Shown: positions 9,353 to 63,544, numbered from the stretch's first letter. The stretch: 64,000 nt of DNA from an uncultured Chloroflexota bacterium (GCA_964435115.1 CAYSYM010000005.1:7134-71133); one strand, 5' to 3'. Translations and numbers: made by a program. The notes: a model not told the origin generated them from the letters alone.

Positions 9353-9652
9353 AGGGGTCTGCTGGCCGGACCGCTTCGCTCACCGCCGTGCAGGGACCCC
9401 GCAGGCGCCAGCTCGCCCGTCGCCTGTAGCGGCGCGAGGCGCTCCGCGGAGTCCGTCCTATGGCACCCGCGAGGGCCCGGCAAGGCACTCACGAACAGGG
9501 GAGGATGAATCGGTTACCGAACGCCACGTCCCGAGGTCCGAGGTAGTCAGCCGATTCGCGTGGTCGGCGACGAGTAGCTCTGAGAGCCTCGATGGTTCGC
9601 CCGCCAACGCCGCCGGACTGTTGAGTGTATCCAGATTGAGGGGGAACCCCGA

Positions 9653-48432: not shown

Positions 48433-49476
48433 CTACGCCAGGACCGGCTGCCCCACCGGCACGGTCCGGCCGGTTGCCGCGGCCTCGAGAGCGGCGAGCA
48501 CGACGGCCAGCGCCGAGATGGCCTCCGGTCCGCTCACCTCCGGGTCGCGGCCGGCCCGCGCCGCCGCCGCCCAGTCCTCCAGCTCGGCGCGGTACATGTC
48601 CACCGGCTCGAACGCCAGGGGCGTGCGCTCGGAGGAGTCCCGCGCCTGAAAGAAGAGCCGGCTGTGGGCGTCCAGGTCGGCTGAGCTCCAGTAGGCGAAG
48701 TCGGCGTCGTAGTAGACCGTGCCGCGCGAGCCGTAGACGTTGATGCTGTACACGCCGGCCGTGGACCAGCTCGTCCCGATGTACGCGGCCGGCCCGCGCT
48801 CGAACCCACACAGCAGCAGCGCCAGGTCGTCCACTTCCGCGCGGGTGTACAGCCTTCGCACCTGAGCCGAGACGCGCTCGATCGGGCCGAACAGCGACTG
48901 CAGGGTGTCGACGTGGTGGACGGCGAGCTGGATGAGCGGGCCGCCCGGACTCTTGTCGCGGAACCACCGCCAGCGGTCCGGCGTCAGCTCCAACCCGCGA
49001 TCGTTCGAGAAGTTGGCCTCGACCAGCGAGACGTCGCCGATGGTCCCGTCCGCCAGCATCCGCCGGATCGCGCGGATCGGGCCGAGCTGCCGCGCACTGT
49101 GGCCGACAGCGAGGCGGACCCCGTTGGAGCGGCACGCTTCGACGATCCGCAGCGCGTCCTCCATGGCGTTGGCGATCGGCTTCTCCACGTACACGTGCTT
49201 GCCGGCCTCGGCCGCGGCGACGATCACCTCGGCGTGGGCGTCGTTGGGGGTGGTCACCATGATCCCTTCGACCTCCTCGTCACCGAGCAGCGCCTCGAGG
49301 CTCGCCTCTGGCCGGCACGCGTAGCGCCGGGCAAAGGCTGCGCGCCGCTCCGAGTCCCGGCTGAAGCATGAGACGAGCGCCAGTTCCGGAGAGCGGTGCG
49401 CTCCATCGGCGATCACCTGCGCCCACCTCCCCAGGCCGACAGACGCGACGCGGAAGGGCGGCTCAAGCCGCTCCAT
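48433..49476 (-). CDS. Gfo/Idh/MocA-family NAD(P)-dependent oxidoreductase
   Basis: FRVASVGLGRWAQ… Rossmann N-terminus. ATG 49476 with a GAGGAGG RBS. The ORF-track start at 49671 is an upstream extension. Confidence 0.8.
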   Translation of the reverse strand: MERLEPPFRVASVGLGRWAQVIADGAHRSPELALVSCFSRDSERRAAFARRYACRPEASLEALLGDEEVEGIMVTTPNDAHAEVIVAAAEAGKHVYVEKPIANAMEDALRIVEACRSNGVRLAVGHSARQLGPIRAIRRMLADGTIGDVSLVEANFSNDRGLELTPDRWRWFRDKSPGGPLIQLAVHHVDTLQSLFGPIERVSAQVRRLYTRAEVDDLALLLCGFERGPAAYIGTSWSTAGVYSINVYGSRGTVYYDADFAYWSSADLDAHSRLFFQARDSSERTPLAFEPVDMYRAELEDWAAAARAGRDPEVSGPEAISALAVVLAALEAAATGRTVPVGQPVLA

Positions 49477-49876
49477 ACAGGACCTCCTCTGGGATGTCGA
49501 TCTCCGGGTGCTCCACCATCGACGCTGGCATGTCGGCGGTCGGAAAGAAGCAGGCGAGGCGCAGGGGCGTGTCGCCGCGGGTGAGCAGCAGGTGGGGCGT
49601 GGCTGGCGGGACCAGCACCGCGTCGCCAGGCCGCACCTCGGCCGTCTCGCCGTCGATCCAGGCCAGCCCATGGCCGCTCAGGACGTAGATGCACTCCTCC
49701 ACGTCACGGTGTTCGTGGGGCGACCGCCGCGCTGGCGGGCCGAGGCGCGGGATCTCGACGATCCGCAGGGTCACACGTTCGGCAGCGCCCACGGCGCCCG
49801 AGAACAGCTCCACCATCTGCCGACCTGGCAGCGCCTGGACGGGCGCGTCGGCCACGTTGCGGACGCGGATCGCCAC
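49463..49876 (-). CDS. cupin-domain protein
   Basis: …HEHRDVEECIYVLSGHGLAWIDGETAEVRPGDAVLVPPATPH is a cupin two-motif fold. The GTG start is adjacent to the creatininase stop. Confidence 0.7.
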   Translation of the reverse strand: MAIRVRNVADAPVQALPGRQMVELFSGAVGAAERVTLRIVEIPRLGPPARRSPHEHRDVEECIYVLSGHGLAWIDGETAEVRPGDAVLVPPATPHLLLTRGDTPLRLACFFPTADMPASMVEHPEIDIPEEVLYGAA

Positions 49877-50641
49877 CTACGGCTCCTGGCCGTGCACGCG
49901 CGTGGCCGCCCGGTCTGTGGCCGTGAAGCACTCGCGCACGTAGGCCGCCGCGCGCTCGGCCGTCTGCTCCACCATCGCCGTCGCCCGCTCGGCGGTGGCC
50001 CCGCGCAGCGTGCCGTACCAGCCAGTGGGCGTAATCTCGCGGATGTCCAGGACGATCGGGTACGCGGCGCGACGGCGGCGCAGGGCGTCGAGCTCGGCGG
50101 CCGGCGCCGGCGGGCCCGAGTTGTCCGCGCGCTCGAGGTGGACCAGCTCGGGCCGGTCGGCCAGCACCGCCAGGGCCTCGATCTCCCCGCCGTGCGTCAG
50201 CCCGACCTCCTGGCCGCACAGGTCGTGCGCGACCCACATCGCCTGGACGACGACGAAGCGGACGCGCGGCGCGTGGCGGCCCTGCACGGCCGCGGCGGCC
50301 TGGTTGATCGCTGCCGCGTTCCCCTCGTGCCAGTTCACCAGCACGAACCGTCGCGCCCCGTGCTGGACCAGGCTCTCACACACGTCCTCTACGACCGCCA
50401 CCAGCGTCGAGGGCCGGAGTGAGAGCGTGCCGGCGAATGGCAGGTGGATGGGCGTGACGCCCAGCGGGCCGACGGGCGCCACCAGGGCATCGAGGTGCTC
50501 GGCCAGGCGCCGGGCAACCGACTCGGCTGCGTAGCTGTCCGTGCCGCAGGGCAGGTGCGGGCCGTGCTGCTCCACGCTGCCCAGCGGCAGCACCACCGTG
50601 CCCGAGCGCTGCAACAGGCGCGCGGCGTCCGGCTGCGTCAA
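49877..50641 (-). CDS. creatininase-family amidohydrolase (paralog 1)
   Basis: …LPLGSVEQHGPHLPCGTD…VLVNWHEGN… is the creatininase/MftE-family signature. Confidence 0.8.
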   Translation of the reverse strand: MTQPDAARLLQRSGTVVLPLGSVEQHGPHLPCGTDSYAAESVARRLAEHLDALVAPVGPLGVTPIHLPFAGTLSLRPSTLVAVVEDVCESLVQHGARRFVLVNWHEGNAAAINQAAAAVQGRHAPRVRFVVVQAMWVAHDLCGQEVGLTHGGEIEALAVLADRPELVHLERADNSGPPAPAAELDALRRRRAAYPIVLDIREITPTGWYGTLRGATAERATAMVEQTAERAAAYVRECFTATDRAATRVHGQEP

Positions 50642-50681
50642 CTCCTGCAGGACGCGGGTCGCCAGCGTCGGTTCCTCCAGC

Positions 50682-51419
50682 CTACGGAGTGGCGCCTCTG
50701 GCGCCGGCCGGGCGCCGCAGCACCCGCAGGCGCCGCAGACCGGTCCCGCTGCGAGTGGATTGCTCGAGCTGCTCGGCCAGCGCCGCCCGCACGCGACCCA
50801 CGTGGGCGCGTGCGGCCGCCTCGGCTGCCTCAGGATCGCGGGCGCGGAGCGCGGCGAGGATCACCTCGTGCTCCTGGAGCGCCAGGCGGGCGCGCTCCTG
50901 GTGCAGGAACGTGCCCGGCAGCAGGAGCTGGGCGGACATGCGGCCGACCGGCATGGCCCGCTCGAGCGCCGGGCTATGGGCGGCGCGCAGGATGCGTACG
51001 TGGAACTCGGTGTTGTCGAGCAGCCAGCCGCCCGGGTTCCAGCGCTCGACGTGCTCCCAGCCGCGTCGGCAGACTGCCTGGATCCTGGCCAGCTCGCCCG
51101 GGGCCAGGCGCATGGCCGCCAGGCGTGCCGCCAGCCCGTCCAGCACCTCGCGCACGTCGTAGTCGTCCAGCAGCGCCTCCGCGGAGAGCTCGGTGACGGC
51201 CCAGCCGCGTCCGCCGAGCGCCGTCACCAGCCCTTGCTGCTCGAGCCAACGCAGGGCCTCGCGCAGTGGCGTGCGGCTGATGCCCAGCTCCTCAGCCAGC
51301 CGCTCCTGGACCAGACGTGTACCCGGGCGCAAGCGGCCGCTGACGATGGCCTCGCGGAGGACGTCGGCCGCCTCGTCGACGAGCGGCCCGGCCGGGTCGG
51401 CGGGACGGGCTGGATGCAT
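50682..51419 (-). CDS. GntR-family transcriptional regulator (FadR/FCD C-terminal domain)
   Basis: HTH …GTRLVQERLAEELGISRTPLREALRWLEQQGLV… plus an FCD domain. ATG at 51419 (MHPARP…). The ORF-track start at 51611 is an upstream extension. Confidence 0.8.
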   Translation of the reverse strand: MHPARPADPAGPLVDEAADVLREAIVSGRLRPGTRLVQERLAEELGISRTPLREALRWLEQQGLVTALGGRGWAVTELSAEALLDDYDVREVLDGLAARLAAMRLAPGELARIQAVCRRGWEHVERWNPGGWLLDNTEFHVRILRAAHSPALERAMPVGRMSAQLLLPGTFLHQERARLALQEHEVILAALRARDPEAAEAAARAHVGRVRAALAEQLEQSTRSGTGLRRLRVLRRPAGARGATP

Positions 51420-51486
51420 GTTTGGATCCAGAGTACTCGCGCGGTGGGCGGGGCGCAAGCAGCCGGCCGCGTGCCCGGGTGGCGGA

Positions 51487-53226
51487 TCAATAGCCGGCGG
51501 TGCCCGCCGGGATGGCCGCCGGATCCCGCGTGGCCAGCGCCGCGCGCTGGCCGAACATCGGGGATTGCCAGGCGTCGACCTGCACGTCCAGCAGCGCCGG
51601 TCCTGGCCCACCCAGCGCTTCCGCCAGTGCCTCGGCCAGGTCCGCCGGGTCCTCCACGCGCCGCGCCCGGAGACCGTAGCCCCGGGCGACCGCGGCGAAG
51701 TCCACGTCCTGGAAATCCTCCCCTTCGTACCCGCGTTGGAAGGTGATCCGCCGGTACCAGCGGATGTAGCCGAGCGAGCTGTTGTTCAGGACGATCGTGA
51801 CGATCTTCAGGCCGTGCTGAACCACGCTCGCCAGCTCGCCGATGGCGTACGACAGGCCGCCATCGCCCGCCAGGTTGACCACCGTCGCCTGGGGCCGTGC
51901 CACGGCGGCGCCGATGGCGGCCGGCAGCCCGAAGCCGAGCCCGGCCGAGCCGCGCGGGGTGACGACCTGGCGGCCAGCCGCGGGCTGCTCGTAGTACAGC
52001 CCGCCCCAGCCGCTGGCGTAGCTCGCGTCGCACACCAGCACGTCCTGCCGCCCCAGCAACCGCTCGAGCTCCGCGACCACCCGCTGGGGTAGGATCGGCC
52101 GGGCGCTGGACGAGCGCTCGCGCTCGCGCGCCTCTCGCCAGGCGGCCGTCAGTTGGTCCAGGCGCGCGGACCAGGCGGCGTGGGATGGCTCACCTGGCAC
52201 GGGATCCCCGAGCGCCTTGAGGATCGCCTCGAGCGCCAGCGCCGCGTCGCCCAGGACCGGCACCGTCTGTGGGAAGACCTTGCCCAGCTCCACGGGATCC
52301 ACGTCCACGTGGACCACCTGCTGATTGGCACGCGGTAGCGTCCACCCCAGGGTGGGGTTCTGGCCGGACTTGGTGCCCACCAGCAGCACGACGTCAGCCT
52401 CGGCGAAGGCTGTCGCGGCAGCGGGCGTGCCGATGCGCCCCACCACGCCGACGCTCAGCGGGTGCCCCTCGGCGATGGCGCCCTTACCCGACAGGCTGGT
52501 GGCGACCGCGGCGCCCACCCGTTCGGCCAGGCGACGCACCTGCTCGCCGGCCCCCGAGATCAGCACGCCACCTCCGGCGAGGAGGAACGGGCGCGCGGCT
52601 CCACGCAGCACGGCGGCTGCGCTGGCAATCGCCTCCGGCGCAGGCGCCTGGCGGAGCGCTGGGTACTGGCCGAACTCGGCCCGGGCGGCGACCGGCCCGG
52701 CCTCCCAGGCCTGGTCGAACACGTCGTGCGGGATGAACAGCGCGACCGGGCCGGGGCGGCCGGTGCTAGCCTCGCGGAAGGCGCTGCGCACAAGGTCCGG
52801 CAGGGCCTGCTGGCTGGGCACCTCCGCCTGCCACTTTGTGACGGGCCGCAGCAGCGCGCACTGCTCCAGGCCCTGCTGGGCAGCGCCGCGGTAGCGCAGA
52901 CCTCTGGCGCTGACCGCGCTCGGCAGATCACTCACCACCGCCAGGACTGGGATCGACGCGTTGTACGCCTCACTCAGGCCCGGCGGCAGCAGCGCGGCAC
53001 CGGGGCCAACCGTGGCGTCGCACACGCCGACCCGGCCGGTGAGGCGGGCGTACGCGTCGGCGGCCCAGGCGCCACTCCGCTCGTCGCGCAGCAGCACGTG
53101 CCGCAGGCGCGACGCGCGGTCCAGGAGCGCGTCGTACAGCGCCGCCGTCTGTCCGCCGGGCACGCCGAAGATGTGCTGGACGCCGTGCGCCAGCAGCAGC
53201 TCGGCAAGGAGCGCGCCAGTGTGCAT
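51487..53226 (-). CDS. thiamine-pyrophosphate-dependent enzyme (acetolactate synthase large-subunit / sulfoacetaldehyde acetyltransferase family)
   Basis: Three-domain TPP enzyme with the GDG…NN TPP-binding motif (…NLAGDGGLSYAIGELASVVQHGLKIVTIVLNNSSLGYI…). Confidence 0.85.
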   Translation of the reverse strand: MHTGALLAELLLAHGVQHIFGVPGGQTAALYDALLDRASRLRHVLLRDERSGAWAADAYARLTGRVGVCDATVGPGAALLPPGLSEAYNASIPVLAVVSDLPSAVSARGLRYRGAAQQGLEQCALLRPVTKWQAEVPSQQALPDLVRSAFREASTGRPGPVALFIPHDVFDQAWEAGPVAARAEFGQYPALRQAPAPEAIASAAAVLRGAARPFLLAGGGVLISGAGEQVRRLAERVGAAVATSLSGKGAIAEGHPLSVGVVGRIGTPAAATAFAEADVVLLVGTKSGQNPTLGWTLPRANQQVVHVDVDPVELGKVFPQTVPVLGDAALALEAILKALGDPVPGEPSHAAWSARLDQLTAAWREARERERSSSARPILPQRVVAELERLLGRQDVLVCDASYASGWGGLYYEQPAAGRQVVTPRGSAGLGFGLPAAIGAAVARPQATVVNLAGDGGLSYAIGELASVVQHGLKIVTIVLNNSSLGYIRWYRRITFQRGYEGEDFQDVDFAAVARGYGLRARRVEDPADLAEALAEALGGPGPALLDVQVDAWQSPMFGQRAALATRDPAAIPAGTAGY

Positions 53227-53388
53227 TCAGCCGTCCCTCTGGCTCGGGTCCCTCACCTCACCCGAGCCGCATCCCCCCGCGGCGCGGCAACATGCGTTGA
53301 CATCCCCGGAGCACGGCACCTATCGTACTCGCAGTCCGCCCAGAGCGGTGCGCCTGCACCCGGGCCGGTCTTTGGGGGGCCGCACAAC

Positions 53389-54228
53389 ATGCCCGATCCC
53401 TCGCGCCCGCGCTCCTACAGCCTGGCCGAGCTGTCCCAGCCAGAGGCTGAGCGCCTCTTCCGGGAGACGCGCCTGGCCATCCTGCCTGTCGGCAGCGTCG
53501 AGCAGCACGGGCCGCACCTGCCACTGGGCACGGATGCTTTCGCTGCGCTGGCGGTGGCGCAGCGCGTCGCCAGCCGCCTGAACGCGCCGATCCTGCCCGG
53601 GCCGATGGTGGGCATCGCGCCGTACCACCTGCCCTGGATCGGGACGCTGACGCTCCGGCCCGCCACGCTGGTCAACGTGCTGGTGGACCTGTGTGCCTCG
53701 CTGGCCGCCGCGGGGGTCGAGCGTGTGCTGGTGATCAACTGGCACGAGGGCAACACGCCGACGGTGCGCCAGGCCAGCCAGGAGATCCAGGCGCAGTACG
53801 GCCTGCGGGTGGTGGTGGCCGAGGCGCACATCATCACGAACCAGCTGTTCCCGGACGAGATGGAGTTCACCCACTGCGGCTCGATGGAGACGGCGGCCGT
53901 GCTGGCGTACGATCCGGCGCTGGTGAACCAGGCGCGCGCTCAGGAAGGCGCAACCGAATTGGAGCGCGGCCTCCGCGGGCACGCCCTGTTCCGCCGCCGC
54001 GACGTGTTCCCGATCATGCGCGACTTTCGCGAGGTCGCCCCCACCGGGTGGTACGGCCACCCGGAGCAGGCGACCCTTGGGCGCGCCCGCGAGATTTTCG
54101 ACCGGGTGGCAGACTACGTTGTCACGCAACTGGCCGAGGTGTCCGAGGAGCTGCGGGCGCTGCAGCCAGACGCCGGCACCGGCCGCGTGTCGCCAGCGAC
54201 CGCGACGGGCGCCGGCGTGGGAGGGTAG
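53389..54228 (+). CDS. creatininase-family amidohydrolase (paralog 2)
   Basis: …LPVGSVEQHGPHLPLGTD…VLVINWHEGN… ATG at 53389. The ORF-track start at 52462 is an upstream extension. Confidence 0.8.
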   Translation: MPDPSRPRSYSLAELSQPEAERLFRETRLAILPVGSVEQHGPHLPLGTDAFAALAVAQRVASRLNAPILPGPMVGIAPYHLPWIGTLTLRPATLVNVLVDLCASLAAAGVERVLVINWHEGNTPTVRQASQEIQAQYGLRVVVAEAHIITNQLFPDEMEFTHCGSMETAAVLAYDPALVNQARAQEGATELERGLRGHALFRRRDVFPIMRDFREVAPTGWYGHPEQATLGRAREIFDRVADYVVTQLAEVSEELRALQPDAGTGRVSPATATGAGVGG

Positions 54229-54306
54229 GTCGCGGTGCTCGGCGTGGAGTCGGCATCGGGCGTCACGGTGGCCGGGCAGCGGAGCGCACCGGGCATCCCG
54301 GCCACG

Positions 54307-55353
54307 ATGCGCGCGGCCGTGCTGCACGCCCCGGAGGACCTGCGGGTCGAGGAGGTTCCGGTGCCGCTGCCCGGGCCTGGCGAGGTGCTGTGCCGGGTGC
54401 GTGCGTGTGGGCTGTGCGGAACCGATCAGAAGATCATCGAGGGGCGCTACCCCGGCGTCTGGCCGCCTGCCTTCCCCTTCATCATTGGCCACGAGTGGGG
54501 CGGCGAAGTCGTGGCGCTCGGCTCTGGGGTCGAGACCTTGAAAGTGGGCGACCGAGTGGCCGCCGAGAACCACGCCGGCTGCGGCCAGTGCCGGATGTGT
54601 CGCACGGGGATGTACAACCTGTGCGAGCGAGCCGGGCGGCGCGACCCGAGCTACAAGCTGTTCGGCCACACCGCGCCCGGGGCGCTGGCGGAGTACGCGG
54701 TGCGCCCGTCCCTGCTGCTCACCCCCCTGCCGGAGATGGTGAGCGACTTGGAAGGCGCGCTGGTGAACCCGGCGGCCCTGGCGCTGCACGGCCTGCGGCG
54801 GACTGGCTTCCACCCGGGCTGCAGCGTGGCCGTCTTCGGGCCAGGGGTGATCGGCCTGCTGACGGTCATGCTGGCGAAGGCCTCCGGCGCCGCGCAGGTC
54901 ATCACCATCGGCCGCGGCGACCGGCTGCGGCTGGCGCAGGAGCTTGGCAGCACTCACGGGGTGGAGTACGACGCGGGCGATCCCGTGCGGGCGGTGAGGG
55001 AGCTGACCGGTGGCCGGGGCGTGGATTACGTCTACGAGTGCTCGGGCAGCCCGGACGCCGTCTCTCAGGCGATCGACGTCGCGCGACGGGGTGGCAAGGT
55101 GGCGCTGCTGGGCCTCACCGGCAATAGGAGCGTCGAGCTGAAGATCGACAAACTGACACTGGACCAGGTCGACGTGCTCGGGGTGCGCAGCAGCCCCAAC
55201 ATGTACCCGGATGTGATCGCGCTGATCGCCTCGGGAGCGGTGCGACCCGAGCGCCTGGCTAGCCACCGCTACCCGCTGGAGCAGGTAGCCGAGGGCGTGG
55301 AGGCGCTCCGATCGCGCTCGTCCAGGGCTGTCCGCGTCATCGTGCAGCCCTGA
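54307..55353 (+). CDS. zinc-dependent medium-chain alcohol/polyol dehydrogenase (sorbitol/threonine-DH-like)
   Basis: …CGLCGTDQKIIEG…GHEWGGEVVALG…CGQCRMCRTG… are structural and catalytic Zn motifs. ATG 54307 (MRAAVLH…). Confidence 0.85.
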   Translation: MRAAVLHAPEDLRVEEVPVPLPGPGEVLCRVRACGLCGTDQKIIEGRYPGVWPPAFPFIIGHEWGGEVVALGSGVETLKVGDRVAAENHAGCGQCRMCRTGMYNLCERAGRRDPSYKLFGHTAPGALAEYAVRPSLLLTPLPEMVSDLEGALVNPAALALHGLRRTGFHPGCSVAVFGPGVIGLLTVMLAKASGAAQVITIGRGDRLRLAQELGSTHGVEYDAGDPVRAVRELTGGRGVDYVYECSGSPDAVSQAIDVARRGGKVALLGLTGNRSVELKIDKLTLDQVDVLGVRSSPNMYPDVIALIASGAVRPERLASHRYPLEQVAEGVEALRSRSSRAVRVIVQP

Positions 55354-56410
55354 GTCGCTGCGCCTCCACGCGACGCACGAGGATCTCCGTGACCTGCGAG
55401 GTGGACGCGGTCCCGCCCAGGTCCGGCGTGAGCGGCTGGTCGCCATCGAGGTAGTCCGCCACGGCCGCGCGGAGGGCGCCGCCTTCCGCGGCGTACCCGA
55501 GGTGCTCCAGCATGAGCGCGCTCGACAGGACGAGCGCGAGTGGGTTCGCCAGGTTGCGCCCGGCGATGTCCGGCGCCGCGCCATGGCCCGCCTCGAACAA
55601 CGCCGCGTTGGGACCTACATTCGCCCCGGCGATCAGGCCCAGGCTGCCGACCAGTCCGGCCGCCAGGTCCGCGAAGATGTCGCCGTACTGGTTGGAGCAC
55701 AGGACCACGTCGAACCGCTCGGGTGCGCGCACCAGGAGGTAGAACGCCGTGTCGACCAGCACGTCGTCAAGCTGGATGTCCGGGTACTCCGCGGCCACCT
55801 CCCGCGCCGTCTGCAGAAACAGCCCGTCGGTCAGGTTGAGGACCGTGGCCTTGTGCAGCACTGTCACCCGCCGGCGGCCGGTCCGACGGGCGTGCTCAAG
55901 GGCGAAGCGAGCGATGCGCTCGGACGCCGCCCGCGTCACCAGCTTGATGGCCTCCGTGTGGCCGGGCGCAACTTGCTGCTCCAGCCCCGCGTAGACATCC
56001 TCCGTGACCTCGCGCACGATCACCAGGTCCATCCCCGCGTAGGCGCCACTGACCCGGCGATAGCCACGCACCGGCCGTAGCTGCCCGAAGCAGCCCAGCT
56101 CGCGCCGCAGCGCCGCGTTGATGCTGGGGTAGGTGCGCATCCGCCCGTCCGTGCCCCGGAGCGACAGCTCCCCCTGGAGCGTCTCGACCTGCAGGGGACC
56201 CTTGAGGCAGGCCCCCTGGCGTGAGACGGCGGCGACGAACCCGGGCGGCACGGGCTGGCCGAAGCGCTCTACCGCCGCCGTCCCCACGGGCCACTCCACC
56301 CACTGGACCGGCAAGCCCGTCGCCGCCACGACCGCACACGCGGCCTCGCTCACCTCGGGGCCGATTCCGTGGCCCCGGATGAGGCTGAGCTCCAGGCGCG
56401 AGCTACTCAC
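55337..56410 (-). CDS. isocitrate/isopropylmalate/tartrate dehydrogenase-family NAD-dependent oxidative decarboxylase
   Basis: …IRGHGIGPEV… N-terminus and …NQYGDIFADLAAGLVGSLGL… motif of the ICDH/IPMDH family. Confidence 0.8.
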   Translation of the reverse strand: MSSSRLELSLIRGHGIGPEVSEAACAVVAATGLPVQWVEWPVGTAAVERFGQPVPPGFVAAVSRQGACLKGPLQVETLQGELSLRGTDGRMRTYPSINAALRRELGCFGQLRPVRGYRRVSGAYAGMDLVIVREVTEDVYAGLEQQVAPGHTEAIKLVTRAASERIARFALEHARRTGRRRVTVLHKATVLNLTDGLFLQTAREVAAEYPDIQLDDVLVDTAFYLLVRAPERFDVVLCSNQYGDIFADLAAGLVGSLGLIAGANVGPNAALFEAGHGAAPDIAGRNLANPLALVLSSALMLEHLGYAAEGGALRAAVADYLDGDQPLTPDLGGTASTSQVTEILVRRVEAQRLRAAR

Positions 56411-56532
56411 GTGCGCAGCCGGGTGGGGGCCGGCGCACCCCGCCTGGGCAGCGACGCACGGCCTGCCTCGGCGTCGCCACTTCCCACCCCGGCATTCGGC
56501 CCCAGCCCGCCGCTTGCAGGTCGACCATGGCG

Positions 56533-56685
56533 GTAGTACTGTATCCGAACATGCATCCAGCCCATCCCGCTGAGCCGGCCGGGCCGCTCGTCGACGAGGC
56601 GGCCGACGTCCTCCGCGCGGCCATCGTCAGCGGCCGCTCGCGGTCCGGCACACGTCTGGTCCAGGAGCCGCTGGCCGATCCCTGA
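56533..56685 (+). pseudogene. duplicated 5' fragment of the GntR regulator gene (about 145 bp including upstream DNA), with the fragment ORF running ATG 56551 to TGA 56685
   Basis: MHPAHPAEPAGPLVDEAADVLRAAIVSGRSRSGTRLVQEPLADP* is a near copy of the first 40 aa of the GntR at 51419 (MHPARPADPAGPLVDEAADVLREAIVSGRLRPGTRLVQERLAE…). The upstream AGTACT…ATCC…AAC ATGCAT context is shared. Confidence 0.5.
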
Positions 56686-56701
56686 GCGGCTGCCGAAGGG
56701 G

Positions 56702-57670
56702 GTGAGGGTGGCACTTCGCGGGCTCCGGGGGATTGTGGGCACCCCAGTGACGCCTTTCACGGCGGAGAACCGCCTTGACCATGCAGGGGTGGAGCGATTG
56801 GTCACCTTCCTGATCGGGAGCGGCGTCCACGCGCTGGCGCTGCCGATGCACACTGGTGAGTCGCTCAACCTGTCGCTGGAGGAGCGCAAGGAGCTGGCCG
56901 AGGTCGCTCTAGCGGCGACGGCGGGACGGGTGCCGGTGCTCATCCACGTCAGTTGTCCCGGGACAGACCAGGTCATCGAGCTGGCGTGCCACGCCGAGCG
57001 GGCTGGCGCGGCCGGGGTCGTGGTCGTGACGCCCTACCACTGGCAGCCCTCCGAGGAAGAGTTATTCGAGCACTTCCTGCGCGTGGGGTCGGCCATCGAG
57101 GTCGGCCTGGTGGCCTATAACTTCCCGAAGAAGCTGGGCGTCAGCGTGACCCACCGGCTCCTGGCGCGGTTGATTGACCGACTCGACAACTTCATCGGGC
57201 TCAAGGACGCGAGCTACGACACGCAGTACTTCACCGAAGCGTGCCGGCTGGCCTCGGCCCTCCGGCCCGGCTTCGCGGTCTTCTCGGGGATTGAGTTCAT
57301 GCTGCCTGCTATGGCGGTGGGCGGCGCGGGGTCGTTCTCCCCTTGCGGGCTGATCGCCCCAGGGCTCATCCGCGACCTGTACGCGGCGTGCGTCGGCGGC
57401 GACTACGCAACCGCGCGCATGCTGCAGTACCGCTTCTCACGGTTATGGCAGGCGCTGAAGGTGGCGTACCCGAGCAGTATCAAAGCCGGCATGGAGATCA
57501 TGGGACGGCCCGCGGGCCCGCCGCGTGGGCCACTCCTTCCAGTGAGCGAGGCGGCCAGGCGGGAGCTCTGGGACCAGCTCGAAGCGCTGGGCATCCTCGA
57601 AGGAGAGCCGCACGGCTGGATGCTGCCACCAACATCAGGGGAGGTCGTGACTCATGAACCCGTCGCCTAG
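56702..57670 (+). CDS. dihydrodipicolinate-synthase-family (DapA-like) class-I aldolase
   Basis: …GTPVTPF…GSGVHALALPMHTGESLNLSLEERKEL… plus the Schiff-base-lysine region (…GLKDAS…). GTG start. Confidence 0.8.
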   Translation: MRVALRGLRGIVGTPVTPFTAENRLDHAGVERLVTFLIGSGVHALALPMHTGESLNLSLEERKELAEVALAATAGRVPVLIHVSCPGTDQVIELACHAERAGAAGVVVVTPYHWQPSEEELFEHFLRVGSAIEVGLVAYNFPKKLGVSVTHRLLARLIDRLDNFIGLKDASYDTQYFTEACRLASALRPGFAVFSGIEFMLPAMAVGGAGSFSPCGLIAPGLIRDLYAACVGGDYATARMLQYRFSRLWQALKVAYPSSIKAGMEIMGRPAGPPRGPLLPVSEAARRELWDQLEALGILEGEPHGWMLPPTSGEVVTHEPVA

Positions 57671-58823
57671 CCTTGGACGCCGCCGCTTCCTGCTGCTGGC
57701 CGGGATCGGTGCAGCCAGTGGACTGCTGGCGGCGTGCCAGGGGGCCGCTCAAACGCCAGCGCCGACGACGGCCCCGGCGCCGAAGCCGACGTCCGCTCCA
57801 GCGCCGACCGCCCAGCCAACGGCGGCCCAGCCCGCGGCAGCGGCCACCACGACCCCCGCCGTGAGCAAGCCGACGACGCTCGCGCTGCCAAAGCCCGAGC
57901 TGACTTCATGGCCCTACGGTGTCTACTCGCCGGCCTACGTGAACGCCGTGCTGCACACAGTTGCGCTGGAGAACGGCTATCTGACCGACGCTGGCTTCGA
58001 CAAGATCGAGGTCATCGTTGGCGAGCAGTACCTGGCCGGCACGGTTGGCGGCGGGCTGCTGCTGGCCTTCGGCGAGACGGACCCGATCTTTGCCGCGAGC
58101 GCCAAGGGTGAGCCACTCACCTACCTCGGCCCGTACCGCGACAAGGAGGAGCGCAACCTGGGCGTCCGCAAGGGCATCGAGACTCCGGCGGACCTGAAGG
58201 GTGCCAAGCTCAGCGGCGGCGCGGTCAACAGCCGCAACACGTTCAACATGAAGGCGCTGGTCAAGAAGGCTGGCCTGGATCCCGAGAAGGACGTCGAATG
58301 GATCTCACTCACTGGGTCGGACGCCACGCTGCAGGCGATCGTGGCGGGCCAGCTCGATGGGGGCTCGCTCTTCCCACGCCACAAGAAGCCGCTTGAAGAC
58401 GCCGGCGGGAAGTTCCTGCTCAGCGAGCGCTCCGCCGTCCCACAGGATGGGTTCTTCGTCCGGACCGACACCGTCAACAAGTACCCCAACCTGATCGTGA
58501 GCTACCTCGCCGCCATCACCCGGGCGCGGCAGTTCGCCCTCGAAGACCCGGCGACGGTGCTGAAGAACAAGGACGCGGTCCTGGCGATGATGGAGAAGAA
58601 CGGCTTCAAGATCCCCGATAACTACAAGCTGGCGTACGAGGCGGACATGGCCCTGCTAAGCGCGGACGGTGGCTTCACCCCGGAGTCCATGGACCAGCTC
58701 GTCCAGGAGAGCAAAGACCAGGGCAACATCCCGAAGGACCTCGACTGGCGCAAGGTCGTGAACGTCTCGCTGCTCAACAAGGCGCAGGTGGCGGTGGGGC
58801 TCCCGGCCAACCCGAAGCTGTAG
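57654..58823 (+). CDS. ABC transporter substrate-binding lipoprotein (NitT/TauT / NMT1-SsuA-like)
   Basis: RRRFLLLAGIGAASGLLAAC is a Tat/lipobox signal, followed by a Pro/Ala/Thr linker and an NMT1/SsuA-like domain. Confidence 0.75.
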   Translation: MNPSPSLGRRRFLLLAGIGAASGLLAACQGAAQTPAPTTAPAPKPTSAPAPTAQPTAAQPAAAATTTPAVSKPTTLALPKPELTSWPYGVYSPAYVNAVLHTVALENGYLTDAGFDKIEVIVGEQYLAGTVGGGLLLAFGETDPIFAASAKGEPLTYLGPYRDKEERNLGVRKGIETPADLKGAKLSGGAVNSRNTFNMKALVKKAGLDPEKDVEWISLTGSDATLQAIVAGQLDGGSLFPRHKKPLEDAGGKFLLSERSAVPQDGFFVRTDTVNKYPNLIVSYLAAITRARQFALEDPATVLKNKDAVLAMMEKNGFKIPDNYKLAYEADMALLSADGGFTPESMDQLVQESKDQGNIPKDLDWRKVVNVSLLNKAQVAVGLPANPKL

Positions 58824-59035
58824 TCTGCCCGCCGGACAGACCGAGCGGCCGCAAACGACCGAGGGACTGCGGCGGCGGAGGCACGGGTTTCGGGCCTCCG
58901 CTCGCCGTGCACGCAGCAGGGGAGGACAGTGTGCGGGGACAGCCCCGGCCGCGGAGGCCCCCGGCGAGGCAGGCCAGCGGCTCGCCGTACGGGTGAGCGA
59001 AGCGGAATGAGCGGCCTGCGTGAGTACCAGGTGCG

Positions 59036-59899
59036 CTAGACCCGGACCTCCTCGCGCCACGGAGCGATGCGGCGCTCCAATGTGCCCATCACGTACACCG
59101 CTCCGACCGAGAAGGCGACGAGGGCCGCCAGCATTGCGAACATCGTCGCGGGGTCCATCTGCTGCCCAGCGCGTTCAATGACGTAGCCCACGCCCTTGCT
59201 GCTGCCGAAGAACTCGCTCACCAGGAGCCCGATCAGTGCGCGGCCGATGCCCTGGCGAATGCCCGTCATGATGAACGGTACCGTGAACGGTAGCACGACC
59301 CGGGTGTAGAGCTGGCGCTTCGAGGCGCCAAACACCCGTGCGGCTTTCAAGAGCGACTGGTCCACGGTCTTCACGCCGTCCATGGAGCTGACGAGGATCG
59401 GCATGATCCCGCTCAGAAAGATGATGACGATCTTGGCCTGCTGGCTGAAGCCGAGCCACAAGATGAACAGGGGCACCAGGGCGATGCGGGGGGTGGCATA
59501 CAGGGCCCAGACGTACGGGCCCAGCAGCGTGCTCACCCACCTCGACGCACCCATCAGCAGGCCCAGAGGGATCCCGACCGCGATCGACAACGCGAAGCCA
59601 ACCGCGAAGTTGACCAGGCTGTACTCGACGTTGCTCCAGAGCTGGCCGCTCTGGGCCAGGTCCACAGTGGCCAGCACCATGTCCGTCGGCAGCGGAAGGA
59701 ACAGCCGCGGGACGAAGCCGCTGGCGACCGCGAACTGCCACAAGGCCAGGAACGTCCCCACGTTCACGATCGTGACCAGCGTCGAGCCGAAGCGCCGCCA
59801 GGCCGCCACGGCAAACGGCTGCGGCGGGGCCACTCGTTCGCGCGCGACGCCGGGTAGCTCCCCGGCCGAAACCCCTCCTGCACTCCCGACTGTCGCCAT
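59036..59899 (-). CDS. ABC transporter permease (NitT/TauT family, BPD inner-membrane component)
   Basis: The EAA-like loop (…AARVFGASKRQLYTRVVLPFTVPFIMTGIRQG…) is typical of nitrate/sulfonate/taurine-type permeases. Confidence 0.8.
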   Translation of the reverse strand: MATVGSAGGVSAGELPGVARERVAPPQPFAVAAWRRFGSTLVTIVNVGTFLALWQFAVASGFVPRLFLPLPTDMVLATVDLAQSGQLWSNVEYSLVNFAVGFALSIAVGIPLGLLMGASRWVSTLLGPYVWALYATPRIALVPLFILWLGFSQQAKIVIIFLSGIMPILVSSMDGVKTVDQSLLKAARVFGASKRQLYTRVVLPFTVPFIMTGIRQGIGRALIGLLVSEFFGSSKGVGYVIERAGQQMDPATMFAMLAALVAFSVGAVYVMGTLERRIAPWREEVRV

Positions 59900-59992
59900 C
59901 GGTTCCCGACCGCCCCCTCAGTTGACCTGGCCCATTATCTCGGAGCGCGCCTCGCAGTGCACGCGAAGAGCCCGGCCGCACCCAACCATGAG

Positions 59993-60790
59993 TTAGTCGC
60001 CAGAGGCCGCGTTTGCCTGCACTTCGCGCTGCAGGAGTCCCCAGGCGCGCTCCCGGAGCGGCACAAACTCCGGGTGGGCCTTCACGTCATACTCCCACCG
60101 CGGTCGTGGCAGCGGCACGGGGATGATCTCCCGGATCTGCCCGGGCCGCGCCGAGATCACCACGATCCGGTCGCCGAGCGCAATCGCCTCGTCGATGCTG
60201 TGGGTGATGAAGATGACCGTCTGCCCCGTCTGCGCGATGATGCGCTCGAGCTCACTCTGCATGACCTCGCGGGTCATGGCGTCCACCGCCGCGAACGGCT
60301 CGTCCATGAGCAGGATCTGCGGCTCGGTGACGAGGGCCCGGGCGAGACCCACCCGCTGCCGCATGCCACCGGACAGTTCGTGTGGGTAGCTCTTCTCGAA
60401 GCCTTGCAGCCCCACCAGGTCGATGAAACGCTGCACCTTCTCCCGCGCGCCCGGCTCCTTCATGCGGCCCTGGAGCTCGAGGCCGAAGGCGACGTTCCGC
60501 CACACGGTCAGCCACGGCATGAGCGCGTACTCCTGGAAGACCATGGCGCGCTCCCGGCCGGGGCCGGTGACCGGCCGCTCCGCGACGGAGATGGTGCCGG
60601 CGGCCGGCGGCAGCAGGCCGGCCACGACGTTGATCAAGGTGGTCTTGCCGCAGCCGGACGGACCGAGGATGGTGAGGAACTCACCCCGCTCCACGCTCAG
60701 CGTGACGTCCCTCAGCGCCACCAGGCGCGTCTTCTGGCGCCGCAGGTCGTATTCGATGGTGAGGTTCGTCGCTTCGACGACCGCCGTCAT
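59993..60790 (-). CDS. ABC transporter ATP-binding protein (NitT/TauT family)
   Basis: GPSGCGKTT, LSGGMRQR and LLMDEPFAAVD motifs. ATG at 60790 (MTAVVEATNL…). The ORF-track start at 60883 is an upstream extension. Confidence 0.8.
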   Translation of the reverse strand: MTAVVEATNLTIEYDLRRQKTRLVALRDVTLSVERGEFLTILGPSGCGKTTLINVVAGLLPPAAGTISVAERPVTGPGRERAMVFQEYALMPWLTVWRNVAFGLELQGRMKEPGAREKVQRFIDLVGLQGFEKSYPHELSGGMRQRVGLARALVTEPQILLMDEPFAAVDAMTREVMQSELERIIAQTGQTVIFITHSIDEAIALGDRIVVISARPGQIREIIPVPLPRPRWEYDVKAHPEFVPLRERAWGLLQREVQANAASGD

Positions 60791-60912
60791 GCAGTCCCCC
60801 GAGCAGCCGAGCACGGGGGATGCCCCCCCATACGTCTGAGCTAGAGTAGACGATGGTGCTTCAGGATACAAGGCTGAATACAACCGGCCCGGAGGCTGCC
60901 ACCGCGCTGGCG

Positions 60913-62220
60913 ATGGACAGCGCCGCGGCCACCCGGGAGCGCACGGCGGTGCTGTGGCTGACCAGCGTCTCGCACGCGGTCGATCATTTCCAGCAGCAGT
61001 TCCTCTCGGCGCTGTACCCGGTCATCATGGCCGAGCTGGGCTTCGGCTACGCGCAGCTCGGCATCCTGACGGCCGCCCGGTCGCTACTCGCCAGCGGCAT
61101 GCAGGTCGCCTTTGGCTTCTTCGCCGCGTTCGTCCGCCGCTCCAGGCTGCTCGGCACCGGTACGCTGGTCGCGGCCTTCGGAACGTTCCTGACGGGCCTG
61201 GCAGGCTCGTACGCGGGCCTGCTCGGCGCCCGCGGCGTCTTCTCGCTCGGTTCGAGCGCCCAGCACCCTGTTGGTGCCAGCCTGCTCGCCGGCTACTTCC
61301 CGAGCCGCCCAGGCACGGTGCTGGCGCTCAATTCCAGCGTCGCCAACGTCGGCGCGCTGCTGGCGCCGCTGTCGGTCGGAGCCTTCCTGGCGCTGATGGG
61401 CTGGCGACAGGCGTTCCTCGTTCTGTCGCTGGTGAGCCTGGCCATGGGCGCCGCGTTCTTCCTGTTGCTGCGGGAGCGTCCACGCACCACGGCCAGCGCG
61501 ACCTCGGGGTGCACGCGCCTGGCCGAGGGCGCGTCGAGCTACCTGCGGGTGCTGCGCAACCGGAACATGCTGGTAGTAGCCCTGGCGATGATGGTCGGGG
61601 CGGCCGGTCGCGGCGAGGGCGTCAACGTGACCTTCATCGCCCCACACCTGGTCAACGACCTCGGTCTCACAGTGGGGATGGCGGGCCTGGCGCTCGCGCT
61701 CCAGCAGGCTGGCGGCATCGTGGGGCCGCTGGGGTTTGGCTGGCTATCAGACCGCTCCTCGCGGAAGCGGGTCGTGCAGGCGTCCCTGGCGGTCTCGGCC
61801 ATCGCCACCTGGTGGCTGGTCACGCTTGGAGGCGACCTGGTGATCCTCCTTCCGGGTCTGCTGGTCTACGGCGCGCTTACCTACTCGCGCTTGACCCTCA
61901 CCCAGGCCCTGGTGGCGGACGCGGTCGAGGATACGGATCGCGATGCCGCCTTCAGCCTGTTCTACTTTCTCGCGTTCGTCTCCGGGCCGCTCTGGACGCT
62001 GGTGACCGGGTTCTTGATGGAGGCGGTCGGGTTCGGGGTCGCCTTCTCGGTGCTGGGCTTCTCCTACCTGGTCGGCGTCGGCCTGCTGGGCCTCGTCCGC
62101 GAAGCCCCGCGCCCCGCCCAGGCAGCCTCTTCCTCGGCAGTTGGCAGCTCCTCGGCCAGCGGATCGACCCAATCCTCTTCACCACGCCCAGCGCGGTTGT
62201 CGCCGCCGGGGCCACGATGA
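60913..62220 (+). CDS. MFS transporter
   Basis: 12-TM MFS with a …DRSSRKR… loop motif. ATG 60913 is preferred. The C-terminal Ser-rich tail is of uncertain reality. Confidence 0.7.
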   Translation: MDSAAATRERTAVLWLTSVSHAVDHFQQQFLSALYPVIMAELGFGYAQLGILTAARSLLASGMQVAFGFFAAFVRRSRLLGTGTLVAAFGTFLTGLAGSYAGLLGARGVFSLGSSAQHPVGASLLAGYFPSRPGTVLALNSSVANVGALLAPLSVGAFLALMGWRQAFLVLSLVSLAMGAAFFLLLRERPRTTASATSGCTRLAEGASSYLRVLRNRNMLVVALAMMVGAAGRGEGVNVTFIAPHLVNDLGLTVGMAGLALALQQAGGIVGPLGFGWLSDRSSRKRVVQASLAVSAIATWWLVTLGGDLVILLPGLLVYGALTYSRLTLTQALVADAVEDTDRDAAFSLFYFLAFVSGPLWTLVTGFLMEAVGFGVAFSVLGFSYLVGVGLLGLVREAPRPAQAASSSAVGSSSASGSTQSSSPRPARLSPPGPR

Positions 62221-62398
62221 TCGGCAGCGGCGCGCTGGGGACCCACCTGTGGCCTAACCTGGTGGTGCTCGTCGTCGAGCCCAACCCGATCACCGCCGAT
62301 AGGACGCTCGGGATGTTTTTCGGCCACACCTTCATCGCCACCCTGGATGGCAAGGAGTGCGTCGACGACTTCCCATGCCAGCTCACGGAGGTCCGCGT

Positions 62399-63544
62399 AT
62401 GAGTGCAGCGCCAGCCGACCCGCGGGTGGCGGCCGCGCTCGCCCACTGGGGGCCGCGCTTCATCGCCAACGGGATCGACTACAACGACTTCCTGGCCACG
62501 ACGGCGCGGGTCGCGCGGTGGAGCCAGTGGTGCGCCGAGTGGCAGAAGACGGCGGCGATCCACGAGCAGCTCGCGCGCGACGCCGAGGCCCGGCGCAGCC
62601 CGCGGTCTGCGGCGGACGCGTACGTCCGCGCGGCGCTGTGCCACCATTTCGGCAAGTTCCTCTTCTTCGACGACCTGGCCCAGCTCCAGGCGGCCTCCGC
62701 GGCGACGGTGGCCACCTACCGCAAGGCCGCCCCCCTGCTCGATCCTCCCGCCGAGCCGGTGGCGATCCCCTACGCCGGCACACCCCTGCCCGGCTACCTG
62801 CGGCAACCCCGCGGGAGCCAGCGCCCGCCCGTGGTCGTGCTGCTGGCCGGGTTGGACTCGGTCAAGGAGGAGTTCCACGCCTTCGAGCCGCTGTTCCTCG
62901 CCCGGGGGATGGCCACCCTCAGCTTCGACGGCCCCGGCCAGGGGGAGCGGGAGTTCGACCTCCCCATCGAGCCGGCCTACGAGCGCGTCGTCGCCGCCGT
63001 GGTGGACTGGCTGCTTGGACGACCAGACGTGGACGGCTCGCGGGTGGCCGTCGCCGGCGTGAGCCTGGGCGGGTACTACGCCGGCCGGGCGGCCGCGTTC
63101 GAGCCGCGGCTCGCCGGCGCCGTTGCGATCGGCGGGCCGTACGACTTCGGGGCGACCTTCGACCAGCTCCCGCCCCTGACCAAGCAGGCCTTCCAGGTCC
63201 GCAGCCATGCGCCCGACTTCCCCGCCGCCCGCGAGCGGGCGCGGACGCTGACGCTCCGCGACGCGGCGCCGCGTATCCACATGCCGTTCCTGATCGTCTT
63301 CGGCCGGCAGGACCGCTTGATCCCCTACCAGCAGGCCGAGCAGCTGTTCGCCGAGATCCCCGCCCAGGAGAAGCAGCTCGCGCTGTTCCCCGAGGGCAAC
63401 CACGTCTGCAACAACATGCCCTACGCCTACCGCCCGCTCGTGGCCGACTGGGTGGCCGAGCGGCTGGGCGCCGGGTCACGGCCTACCCGCAGCGGCGGAA
63501 GCCGCGGGGGTAGGCGTGGAGGGCCTCCACCCCGTTCGGCGTGA
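62399..63544 (+). CDS. alpha/beta-hydrolase-fold protein (FrsA/dienelactone-hydrolase-like)
   Basis: GVSLGGY nucleophile-elbow (G-x-S-x-G) and a catalytic-triad arrangement. ATG 62399 with a GGAGG RBS. The 3' end is uncertain because it overlaps the convergent M24 gene. Confidence 0.7.
   Translation: MSAAPADPRVAAALAHWGPRFIANGIDYNDFLATTARVARWSQWCAEWQKTAAIHEQLARDAEARRSPRSAADAYVRAALCHHFGKFLFFDDLAQLQAASAATVATYRKAAPLLDPPAEPVAIPYAGTPLPGYLRQPRGSQRPPVVVLLAGLDSVKEEFHAFEPLFLARGMATLSFDGPGQGEREFDLPIEPAYERVVAAVVDWLLGRPDVDGSRVAVAGVSLGGYYAGRAAAFEPRLAGAVAIGGPYDFGATFDQLPPLTKQAFQVRSHAPDFPAARERARTLTLRDAAPRIHMPFLIVFGRQDRLIPYQQAEQLFAEIPAQEKQLALFPEGNHVCNNMPYAYRPLVADWVAERLGAGSRPTRSGGSRGGRRGGPPPRSA

Follow-up and report, generated by a model that had tools for sequence, protein, structure and literature searches.

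Partial inverted duplicate of a gntR 5′ end upstream of an aldolase operon in an uncultured Chloroflexota bacterium, a candidate GntR-repressible promoter

Organization of the locus and the inverted repeat

A 64,000-nt stretch of DNA (the window) from an uncultured Chloroflexota bacterium (GCA_964435115.1 CAYSYM010000005.1:7134-71133; G+C content 72.5%) carries a regulator gene of the GntR family (gntR) and, in opposite orientation, a partial copy of the 5′ end of the same gene. The copy lies directly upstream of an operon that encodes an aldolase of the dihydrodipicolinate synthase (DHDPS) family and an NMT1/SsuA-like substrate-binding protein (SBP). The two gntR sequences form the arms of an inverted repeat around four genes, which encode a thiamine pyrophosphate (TPP) enzyme, a second creatininase-family protein, a zinc-dependent alcohol dehydrogenase (Zn-ADH) and a protein of the isocitrate/isopropylmalate dehydrogenase family (ICDH-like). 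The features are collected in Table 1.

Table 1. Features of the window and promoter/operator arrangements of gntR orthologues.
Feature	Position	Strand	Basis or remarks
GFO/IDH/MocA oxidoreductase (GFO)	48433-49671	-	
Cupin	49463-49876	-	
Creatininase family (Creat1)	49877-50641	-	
GntR/FCD regulator (gntR)	50682-51419	-	Pfam; winged helix-turn-helix (wHTH) + FCD, 245 aa; first gene of the gntR-creatininase-cupin-GFO operon
Resident arm	51292-51431	-	gntR codons 1-42 + 12 nt upstream (ungapped); homology to ~51438, possibly 51482
Resident predicted operator	51412-51430	-	cTGGATCCAAacATGCATCCAG; ATG (51419) within second unit; pattern search + orthologue promoter alignment (L021, L028, L030)
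Resident hexamers	51430-51458	-	TTGCGC (51458-51453), 17 nt, TACTCT (51435-51430)
Inter-arm segment, 5.1 kb	51432-56538		TPP, creatininase paralogue, Zn-ADH, ICDH-like; same block and order in L001
TPP enzyme	51487-53226	-	Pfam
Second creatininase-family gene	53389-54228	+	Pfam
Zn-ADH	54235-55353	+	Pfam
ICDH-like	55337-56410	-	Pfam
Copy hexamers	56514-56542	+	TTGCAG (56514-56519), 17 nt, TACTGT (56537-56542); conserved blocks in arm alignment
Copy arm	56539-56678	+	Partial inverted duplicate of gntR 5′ end; secure from 56533, weak possible reach to 56484
Copy predicted operator	56540-56558	+	cTGTATCCGAacATGCATCCAG; pattern search
Fragment open reading frame (ORF)	56551-56685	+	44 codons (42 gntR-homologous, then D-P) + TGA
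Recipient operon	56695-58823	+	Shine-Dalgarno (SD) sequence GAAGGGGG 56695-56702, aldolase, binding protein; genes overlap by 17 nt
DHDPS-family aldolase	56708-57670	+	Pfam
NMT1/SsuA-like SBP	57654-58823	+	Pfam
ATP-binding cassette (ABC) permease	59036-59899	-	
ABC ATPase	59993-60790	-	ATG 60790
Third predicted operator	60864-60883	-	TTGTATTCAGccTTGTATCC; divergent region, ABC ATPase/permease (-) vs MFS (+)
Major facilitator superfamily (MFS) transporter	60853-62220	+	ATG 60853
FrsA-like hydrolase	62303-63544	+	
Window resident promoter/operator			TTGCGC-17-TACTCT GGATCCAAAC-ATGCATCCAG
Window copy promoter/operator			TTGCAG-17-TACTGT ATCCGAAC-ATGCATCCAG
L021 gntR promoter/operator			TTTACG-17-TAGTAT TGTATGCCAAC TTGTATCCAAT
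L028 gntR promoter/operator			TTGCGC-17-TAGGCT TGGATTCGAGT TTGTATCCA-ATG
L030 gntR operator			TTTGGATACAAAC-ATGGATGCAGC

The full gntR product matched the GntR domain PF00392 (65.8 bits, cut-off 27, residues 15-75) and the FCD domain PF07729 (77.9 bits, cut-off 24.3, residues 87-208), and it reached the cut-off of no NCBIfam equivalog. The aldolase scored 194.8 bits against PF00701. Its score against the NCBIfam dapA model TIGR00674 was 161.4 bits, below the cut-off of 206.15, so it is not assigned to DapA proper. Its start at 56708 agrees with the 320-aa length of an identical protein in the database (P0121).

The repeat finder returned the two arms as an inverted repeat of 140 nt that is 91% complementary, with 5107 nt between the arms. 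This was by a wide margin the strongest inverted repeat in 48-60 kb; the runner-up, formed by the creatininase paralogues, reached 71% over 87 nt. In an ungapped count the copy arm and the reverse complement of the resident arm were identical at 127 of 140 positions (13 mismatches). MAFFT added an upstream AGTA(CT) block beyond a 2-bp indel, which gave 56533-56676 with an identity of ~89-90%, and blastn of the two arms gave 89.1% over 147 positions. These values bear out an earlier sequence-only reading of the window, in which 56533-56676 was estimated to be about 90% identical to the reverse complement of 51292-51438; that reading counted 40 copied codons, and the alignment gives 42. The arms share a 43-nt core without mismatch (56575-56617 = 51353-51395; expected chance matches 0.00), and a search of the 64 kb found this 43-mer in these two copies only. 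The identical run is no significant evidence of gene conversion or selection (P = 0.09 for 13 random mismatches).

Upstream of the gntR start the homology is secure for ~19 bp. A shared upstream part had been seen in the sequence-only reading, where it was put at about 15 bp. The local alignment extends to 51482/56484 and spans the entire 67-bp spacer between the TPP gene and gntR; the similarity of its distal part (-20 to -63) is marginal (p ~0.05 against random window segments), and an extension of the copy to 56484 (resident 51482) is possible. At the other end the homology breaks off sharply at 56678, and the distance from the end of the copy to the SD sequence of the aldolase gene is 17 nt. 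The predicted TGA is present (56683-56685); its distance to the aldolase gene, taken before as 17 bp, is 16 nt to a GTG at 56702 or 22 nt to the likelier GTG at 56708. Past the homology breakpoint, within 56664-56697, the copy reads GAGCCGCTGGCCGA-TCCCT-GAGCGGCTGCCGA, and the second 13-mer resembles GAGCGGCTGGCTGA at the breakpoint of the donor. This likeness may be a junction microhomology or a GC-rich coincidence.

The repeat consists of host gene sequence and is not an insertion sequence (IS) or a miniature inverted-repeat transposable element (MITE). The scan for such elements found only the two 43-mer copies in the 64 kb, and the genes scanned in 47-63.5 kb were all metabolic, transport or regulatory.

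Both repeat junctions were confirmed by independent assemblies. Three Logan contigs (SRR5161794/795/805) matched the window at 99.97-100% from 56604 leftwards through the ICDH-like gene; two were identical to it and one had 1 mismatch in 3110 nt. A fourth contig spans 56588-57969. The resident arm was crossed, from the TPP gene into gntR, by an NCBI contig of a metagenome-assembled genome (MAG), GCA_027310525.1 (L022). The short-read contigs all break inside the identical 43-bp core, as a chimeric join or a collapsed repeat might also make them do, but such breaks are the signature of a genuine repeat. The copy-specific variants on either side of the core recur at 99.97-100% in the contigs of all three read sets, and a separate MAG assembly passes through the resident arm, which leaves only the connectivity of the window itself. 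An assembly artefact can already be regarded as effectively refuted. Over 1807 nt the MAG contig differed from the window only by CTC->CGC in codon 21 of gntR (L21R; L022:1043 = window 51378). This position is inside the repeat arm, and the copy arm of the window has CTC there, as does the resident gene.

Origin of the copy and decay of its coding part

Orthologues of the regulator had 60-76% protein identity. In three of their loci (L021, L028 and L029) the same creatininase, cupin and GFO genes directly follow gntR. The gene at 50682-51419 thus stands in its ancestral operon, and the secondary sequence is the one at 56.5 kb. The resident gene and the copy have in common the lineage-specific N-terminal tail MHPA(R/H)PA(D/E)PAGP, and none of the orthologues has it. 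The copy thus derives from the organism's own gntR and not from a distant paralogue.

Relatives were collected by a contig scan of genomes, which yielded 16 loci (L001-L016), and by protein searches in a collection of 5.8 billion proteins. Beyond the organism itself, the protein searches returned nothing above 77% identity for the aldolase or 76% for GntR. The closest relative is a Chloroflexi MAG (L001), whose aldolase has 77% identity. As in the window, its block runs TPP (-), second creatininase (+), ADH (+), ICDH (-), aldolase (+) and SBP (+). The ICDH-aldolase spacer of L001 is unrelated, measures 249 bp and has its own TTGACC-17-TACCAT; this locus has no gntR fragment, and no GntR gene was found within 21 kb. 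The actinobacterial loci contain TPP-creatininase-ADH-aldolase operons without the fragment. The sequence-only reading had proposed to look in relatives for an intact second GntR gene at 56.5 kb; neither such a gene nor the fragment was found among the 16 loci. In L001, the aldolase, SBP, Ldh_2-family dehydrogenase (Ldh2), Creat1, cupin and GFO genes lie in one co-oriented string (L001:9992-15804). The window lineage appears to have split that string, with gntR-Creat1-cupin-GFO put across the TPP block. The comparison indicates that the fragment is specific to the window lineage and that rearrangements of the locus followed the split from L001.

The copy may have originated from a whole second gntR that was later deleted, or from copying of the piece only. 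The earlier suggestion of a remnant of a second regulator copy is right as a description of origin, with the coding part decaying as a pseudogene, and it is compatible with a role of the remnant as an operator. A single inversion and a duplicative inversion were rejected as origin: the 5.1-kb block points the same way in L001, and the ATPase gene is not oriented as a one-step inversion would leave it.

Because of their length of 140 bp, their 43-bp identical core and their position on both sides of a discrete four-gene block, the arms could also be read as a substrate for RecA-mediated homologous recombination that reversibly flips the 5.1-kb TPP-creatininase-ADH-ICDH block. The flip would leave gntR intact and exchange the sequences in front of gntR and the aldolase operon, with no loss of either GntR-controlled start, as a switch built from the 5′ end of the regulator. 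We consider such a switch extremely improbable. All independent contigs (L022, L023 and L032-L034) join arm-specific single-nucleotide polymorphisms to the window flanks, and the alternative junction was not seen in them; the 9% divergence of the arms argues against frequent exchange or conversion, and the shared orientation of the block in L001 speaks against it as well.

The copied coding part appears to be dead and to drift as a pseudogene. Copy and resident codons differ by 6 replacement and 4 silent changes, with a replacement rate (dN) of 0.069, a silent rate (dS) of 0.156 and a ratio of 0.44. Such figures would be expected from neutral drift of the copy (~7-8% change) next to a resident gene in which silent changes alone are tolerated. 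Four replacements (E23A, L30S, P32S and R40P) are all derived in the copy, at sites where 7 orthologues show no change or conservative substitutions only. The peptide of the copy matched positions 2-31 of the 64 in the Pfam GntR model with 13.4 bits, below the cut-off of 27, and does not amount to a complete wHTH. Missing from it are the wing, the FCD domain and the recognition helix SRTPLRE, which spans residues 48-54 in the full-length regulator.

The sequence-only reading had allowed that the copy could encode a 44-aa peptide without a helix-turn-helix. The frame is indeed open for 44 codons, or 52 from an ATG at 56527, ends 22 nt before the aldolase start and was called as a gene by the gene caller behind the Logan contigs; it would be translated too if the gntR mRNA is leaderless or short-leadered (see below). 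It is nevertheless very unlikely that the frame yields a functional micro-protein or that the aldolase operon is controlled by a leader peptide or leader RNA. The replaced residues are conserved ones of the helices, dN and dS fit a neutral copy, the parts needed for recognition and dimerization are gone, and a homologue was not found in L001. A structured leader or riboswitch was rejected, as an Rfam search (E <= 1) of 50000-61500 gave no match and the putative leader RNA at 56545-56730 folds no better than shuffles (z = +1.2).

Predicted operators and promoter-like elements

The predicted operator consists of two 10-bp quasi-palindromic units of the TTGKATMCAA type, 12 bp apart, and overlaps the ATG. 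The tandem pattern TGTATNCNNNNNTGTATCC occurs with at most 2 mismatches at 3 places in the 64 kb, where 0.03 are expected: at the resident gene, in the copy, and at 60864-60882. The third site is a perfect match, the copy has 1 mismatch and the resident site has 2. The site at 60864-60883 is likely a third member of the GntR regulon. Tandem sites with at most 1 mismatch were found in the promoter regions of 5 of 7 orthologous GntR loci, namely L017 (2 sites), L021, L028 and L030/L031, and nowhere in ~270 kb of the GntR-less loci L001-L016. All six units of the window retain G3 and C8, and the regulator of the window retains the R-T-x-x-R contact motif (SRTPLRE). The promoter of the regulator itself and the target promoters carry the same motif, which is kept in orthologous loci, as is expected at the sequence level of an autoregulated regulon. 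The region between the divergent TPP and second creatininase genes gave no operator, nor did the sequence upstream of the ICDH-like gene.

A heptamer TGTATCC, one of four in the window, is present at 9626-9632 (+) (GTGTATCCAG, 8/10 to the operator unit). It lies 20 nt upstream of the ATG (9653) of a gene (SD GAGGGGG) that probably encodes a secreted protein or lipoprotein, and it may be a single-unit site or a chance occurrence.

The upstream regions of the gntR orthologues share one design, in which a -35-like hexamer is followed after 17 nt by a TANNNT hexamer and then directly by two or three operator units (Table 1). Both the resident gene and the copy have hexamers with this spacing. At the third site the second unit can double as a -35 element (TTGTAT-17-TACTCT). 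The proposal of promoters is based on the TANNNT-type hexamers and on the comparison with the orthologues. The last operator unit contains or adjoins the start codon in L028, L030 and the window. The absence of an SD sequence before this codon points to a gntR mRNA that is leaderless or has a very short leader. Terminator scans of both copies found nothing.

The spacer between the ICDH-like and aldolase genes measures 291 bp, and two thirds of it are copy; the ~100 bp of non-copy sequence are mostly on the ICDH side. Because the copy keeps the operator and the 17-nt-spaced hexamers, ends just before the SD sequence and fills two thirds of the spacer, it is the most plausible promoter of the aldolase operon. 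The recipient operon also seems to be functionally connected with the regulator. An NMT1-type ABC transporter consistently adjoins the GntR orthologues (L017, L021, L029 and L030). In the window, the gene for the binding protein of the transporter is behind the copy and the ATPase and permease genes are behind the third site, so that the binding protein of the recipient operon appears to be the partner of the GntR-linked NMT1-type transporter.

We lean towards the view that this remnant of a partial duplication now supplies a GntR-repressible promoter and operator to the aldolase/binding-protein operon. The motif would be the GntR operator, the copy an active promoter and the mode of regulation repression. 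In the absence of the ligand, one or more GntR dimers would occupy the operator over the -10/+1 region and block transcription; with the ligand present, the aldolase and the transporter binding protein would be expressed. Their expression would coincide with that of gntR-creatininase-cupin-GFO from the resident site and with that of the ABC ATPase/permease genes and/or the divergent MFS gene from the third site, and three transcription units would be co-ordinated by one GntR. The sequence-only reading had already proposed that the copy moves the operator or promoter of the regulator in front of the dapA-like gene. At the level of sequence, this proposal is favoured by the tandem motif, its presence in 5 of 7 orthologous loci, the third site and the position before the SD sequence of an operon that encodes a transporter partner.

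Several observations weigh against this view. L001 has the same operon and lacks the element, which shows that expression does not in principle depend on it. Two loci of GntR orthologues (L024 and L026) have only degenerate tandem matches or none. A search with the single unit (TTGKATMCAA, at most 1 mismatch) is not significant by itself, and the significance comes from the tandem pattern only. The 19-nt operator is too short to distinguish selection from drift, as neutral change of ~7-8% predicts 1-2 changes and 2 are seen. By E. coli standards the hexamers are weak, and a strict sigma-70 scan found no promoter in either copy; the homology of the -35 regions is marginal (p ~0.05). The shortness of the operator and the weak hexamers, together with the pseudogene-type evolution of the coding part and the rearrangement of the locus relative to L001, where the Creat1-cupin-GFO and ATPase genes differ in place and orientation, would suit a neutral relic. 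The copy would then be rearrangement debris without a regulatory role, left by a segmental inverted duplication of the gntR operon with later deletion or by an ectopic repair patch, and the aldolase operon would be transcribed from another, unrecognised start. This is the main rival; we regard it as less likely, yet as an explanation to be taken seriously. Against it, the copy matches the operator pattern better than the resident site does, keeps the 17-nt geometry of the -35/-10-like hexamers and stops precisely before the SD sequence of the recipient. The ~100 bp of non-copy spacer leave little room for another promoter, and the partnership of the binding protein with the GntR-linked transporter also argues against a relic.

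Comparison with known systems and neighbouring genes

The case would belong with promoter propagation, a known phenomenon, and regulatory rewiring by duplication is not unprecedented. Putative mobile promoters (PMPs) were defined as sequences of at least 50 nt with at least 80% identity upstream of two genes with non-homologous coding sequences (Matus-Garcia, Nijveen & van Passel 2012, PMC3488235). In that survey pairs were the commonest family size, with a mean identity of 92%, and 'random duplications mediated by recombination' were proposed as one origin (PMC3488235). Like a PMP, the copy is a 5′ region of more than 50 nt and 91% identity that stands before a non-homologous gene (DHDPS family versus GntR) in the same genome, in a lineage-confined pair. 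Unlike the surveyed set, ~126 of its 140 nt are coding in the donor, where the operator overlaps the start codon; the survey pipeline discarded clusters that mixed promoters and coding sequences (PMC3488235), so this class was filtered out there. A further difference is that the donor here is the regulator's own, predicted autoregulated promoter, with operator and cognate repressor linked, and that no mobile element is involved.

Ordinary truncated pseudogene fragments produced by duplication and deletion resemble the copy in being 5′ fragments with a sharp boundary, derived replacements at conserved residues and dN and dS values compatible with neutrality. They differ from the copy, which has an apparently intact cis-regulatory module placed exactly before a functionally related operon.

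Atu1419, an FCD-type GntR regulator of Agrobacterium fabrum, has as its binding site a 10-bp palindrome, ATGTATACAT, that overlaps -10 boxes; G3 is essential and is contacted by the arginine of an R-T-x-x-R helix (PMC7797058). The regulator of the window is like Atu1419 in its wHTH and FCD domains and its R-T-x-x-R motif, and its predicted sites are 10-bp units with a TGTAT(A/C)CA core, G3 and C8. Further likenesses are several sites per regulon, degenerate ones included, and operators predicted to lie over core promoter elements. The units of the window differ in being imperfect palindromes in tandem, 12 bp apart, and the kinship is at the family level only.

If the copy is active, it would be a natural case of one-step regulon growth, in which the promoter-operator module of a repressor was carried to a new operon by partial duplication and the aldolase and transporter binding protein came to be co-induced with the rest of the catabolic cluster. 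With operators that overlap start codons, such events would leave 5′ gene fragments, which are filtered out by annotation pipelines and by surveys of promoter propagation. For an uncharacterised GntR clade of uncultured, probably Chloroflexota, bacteria, the analysis further yields a candidate operator consensus (two TTGKATMCAA units spaced by 12 bp) and predicts a regulon of three promoters.

The two creatininase-family paralogues of the window (49877-50641 and 53389-54228) are inverted relative to each other and give rise to the repeats I2/I3, with 71-77% nucleotide identity over 77-87 nt and ~45% amino acid identity. L001 and the actinobacterial loci contain a separate orthologue of each paralogue, which indicates that the duplication behind them is an old one with no connection to the gntR fragment. 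The genes in 48433-56410 showed sub-threshold NCBIfam likeness to the Thermotoga-type inositol pathway, none above the cut-off: GFO resembled IolG, Zn-ADH resembled IolM (233 bits against a cut-off of 450) and the creatininase fold resembled IolN. The Zn-ADH (+) and ICDH-like (-) genes converge with their 3′ ends overlapping by 17 nt (55337-55353), and the same overlap is present in L001 (8672-8682).

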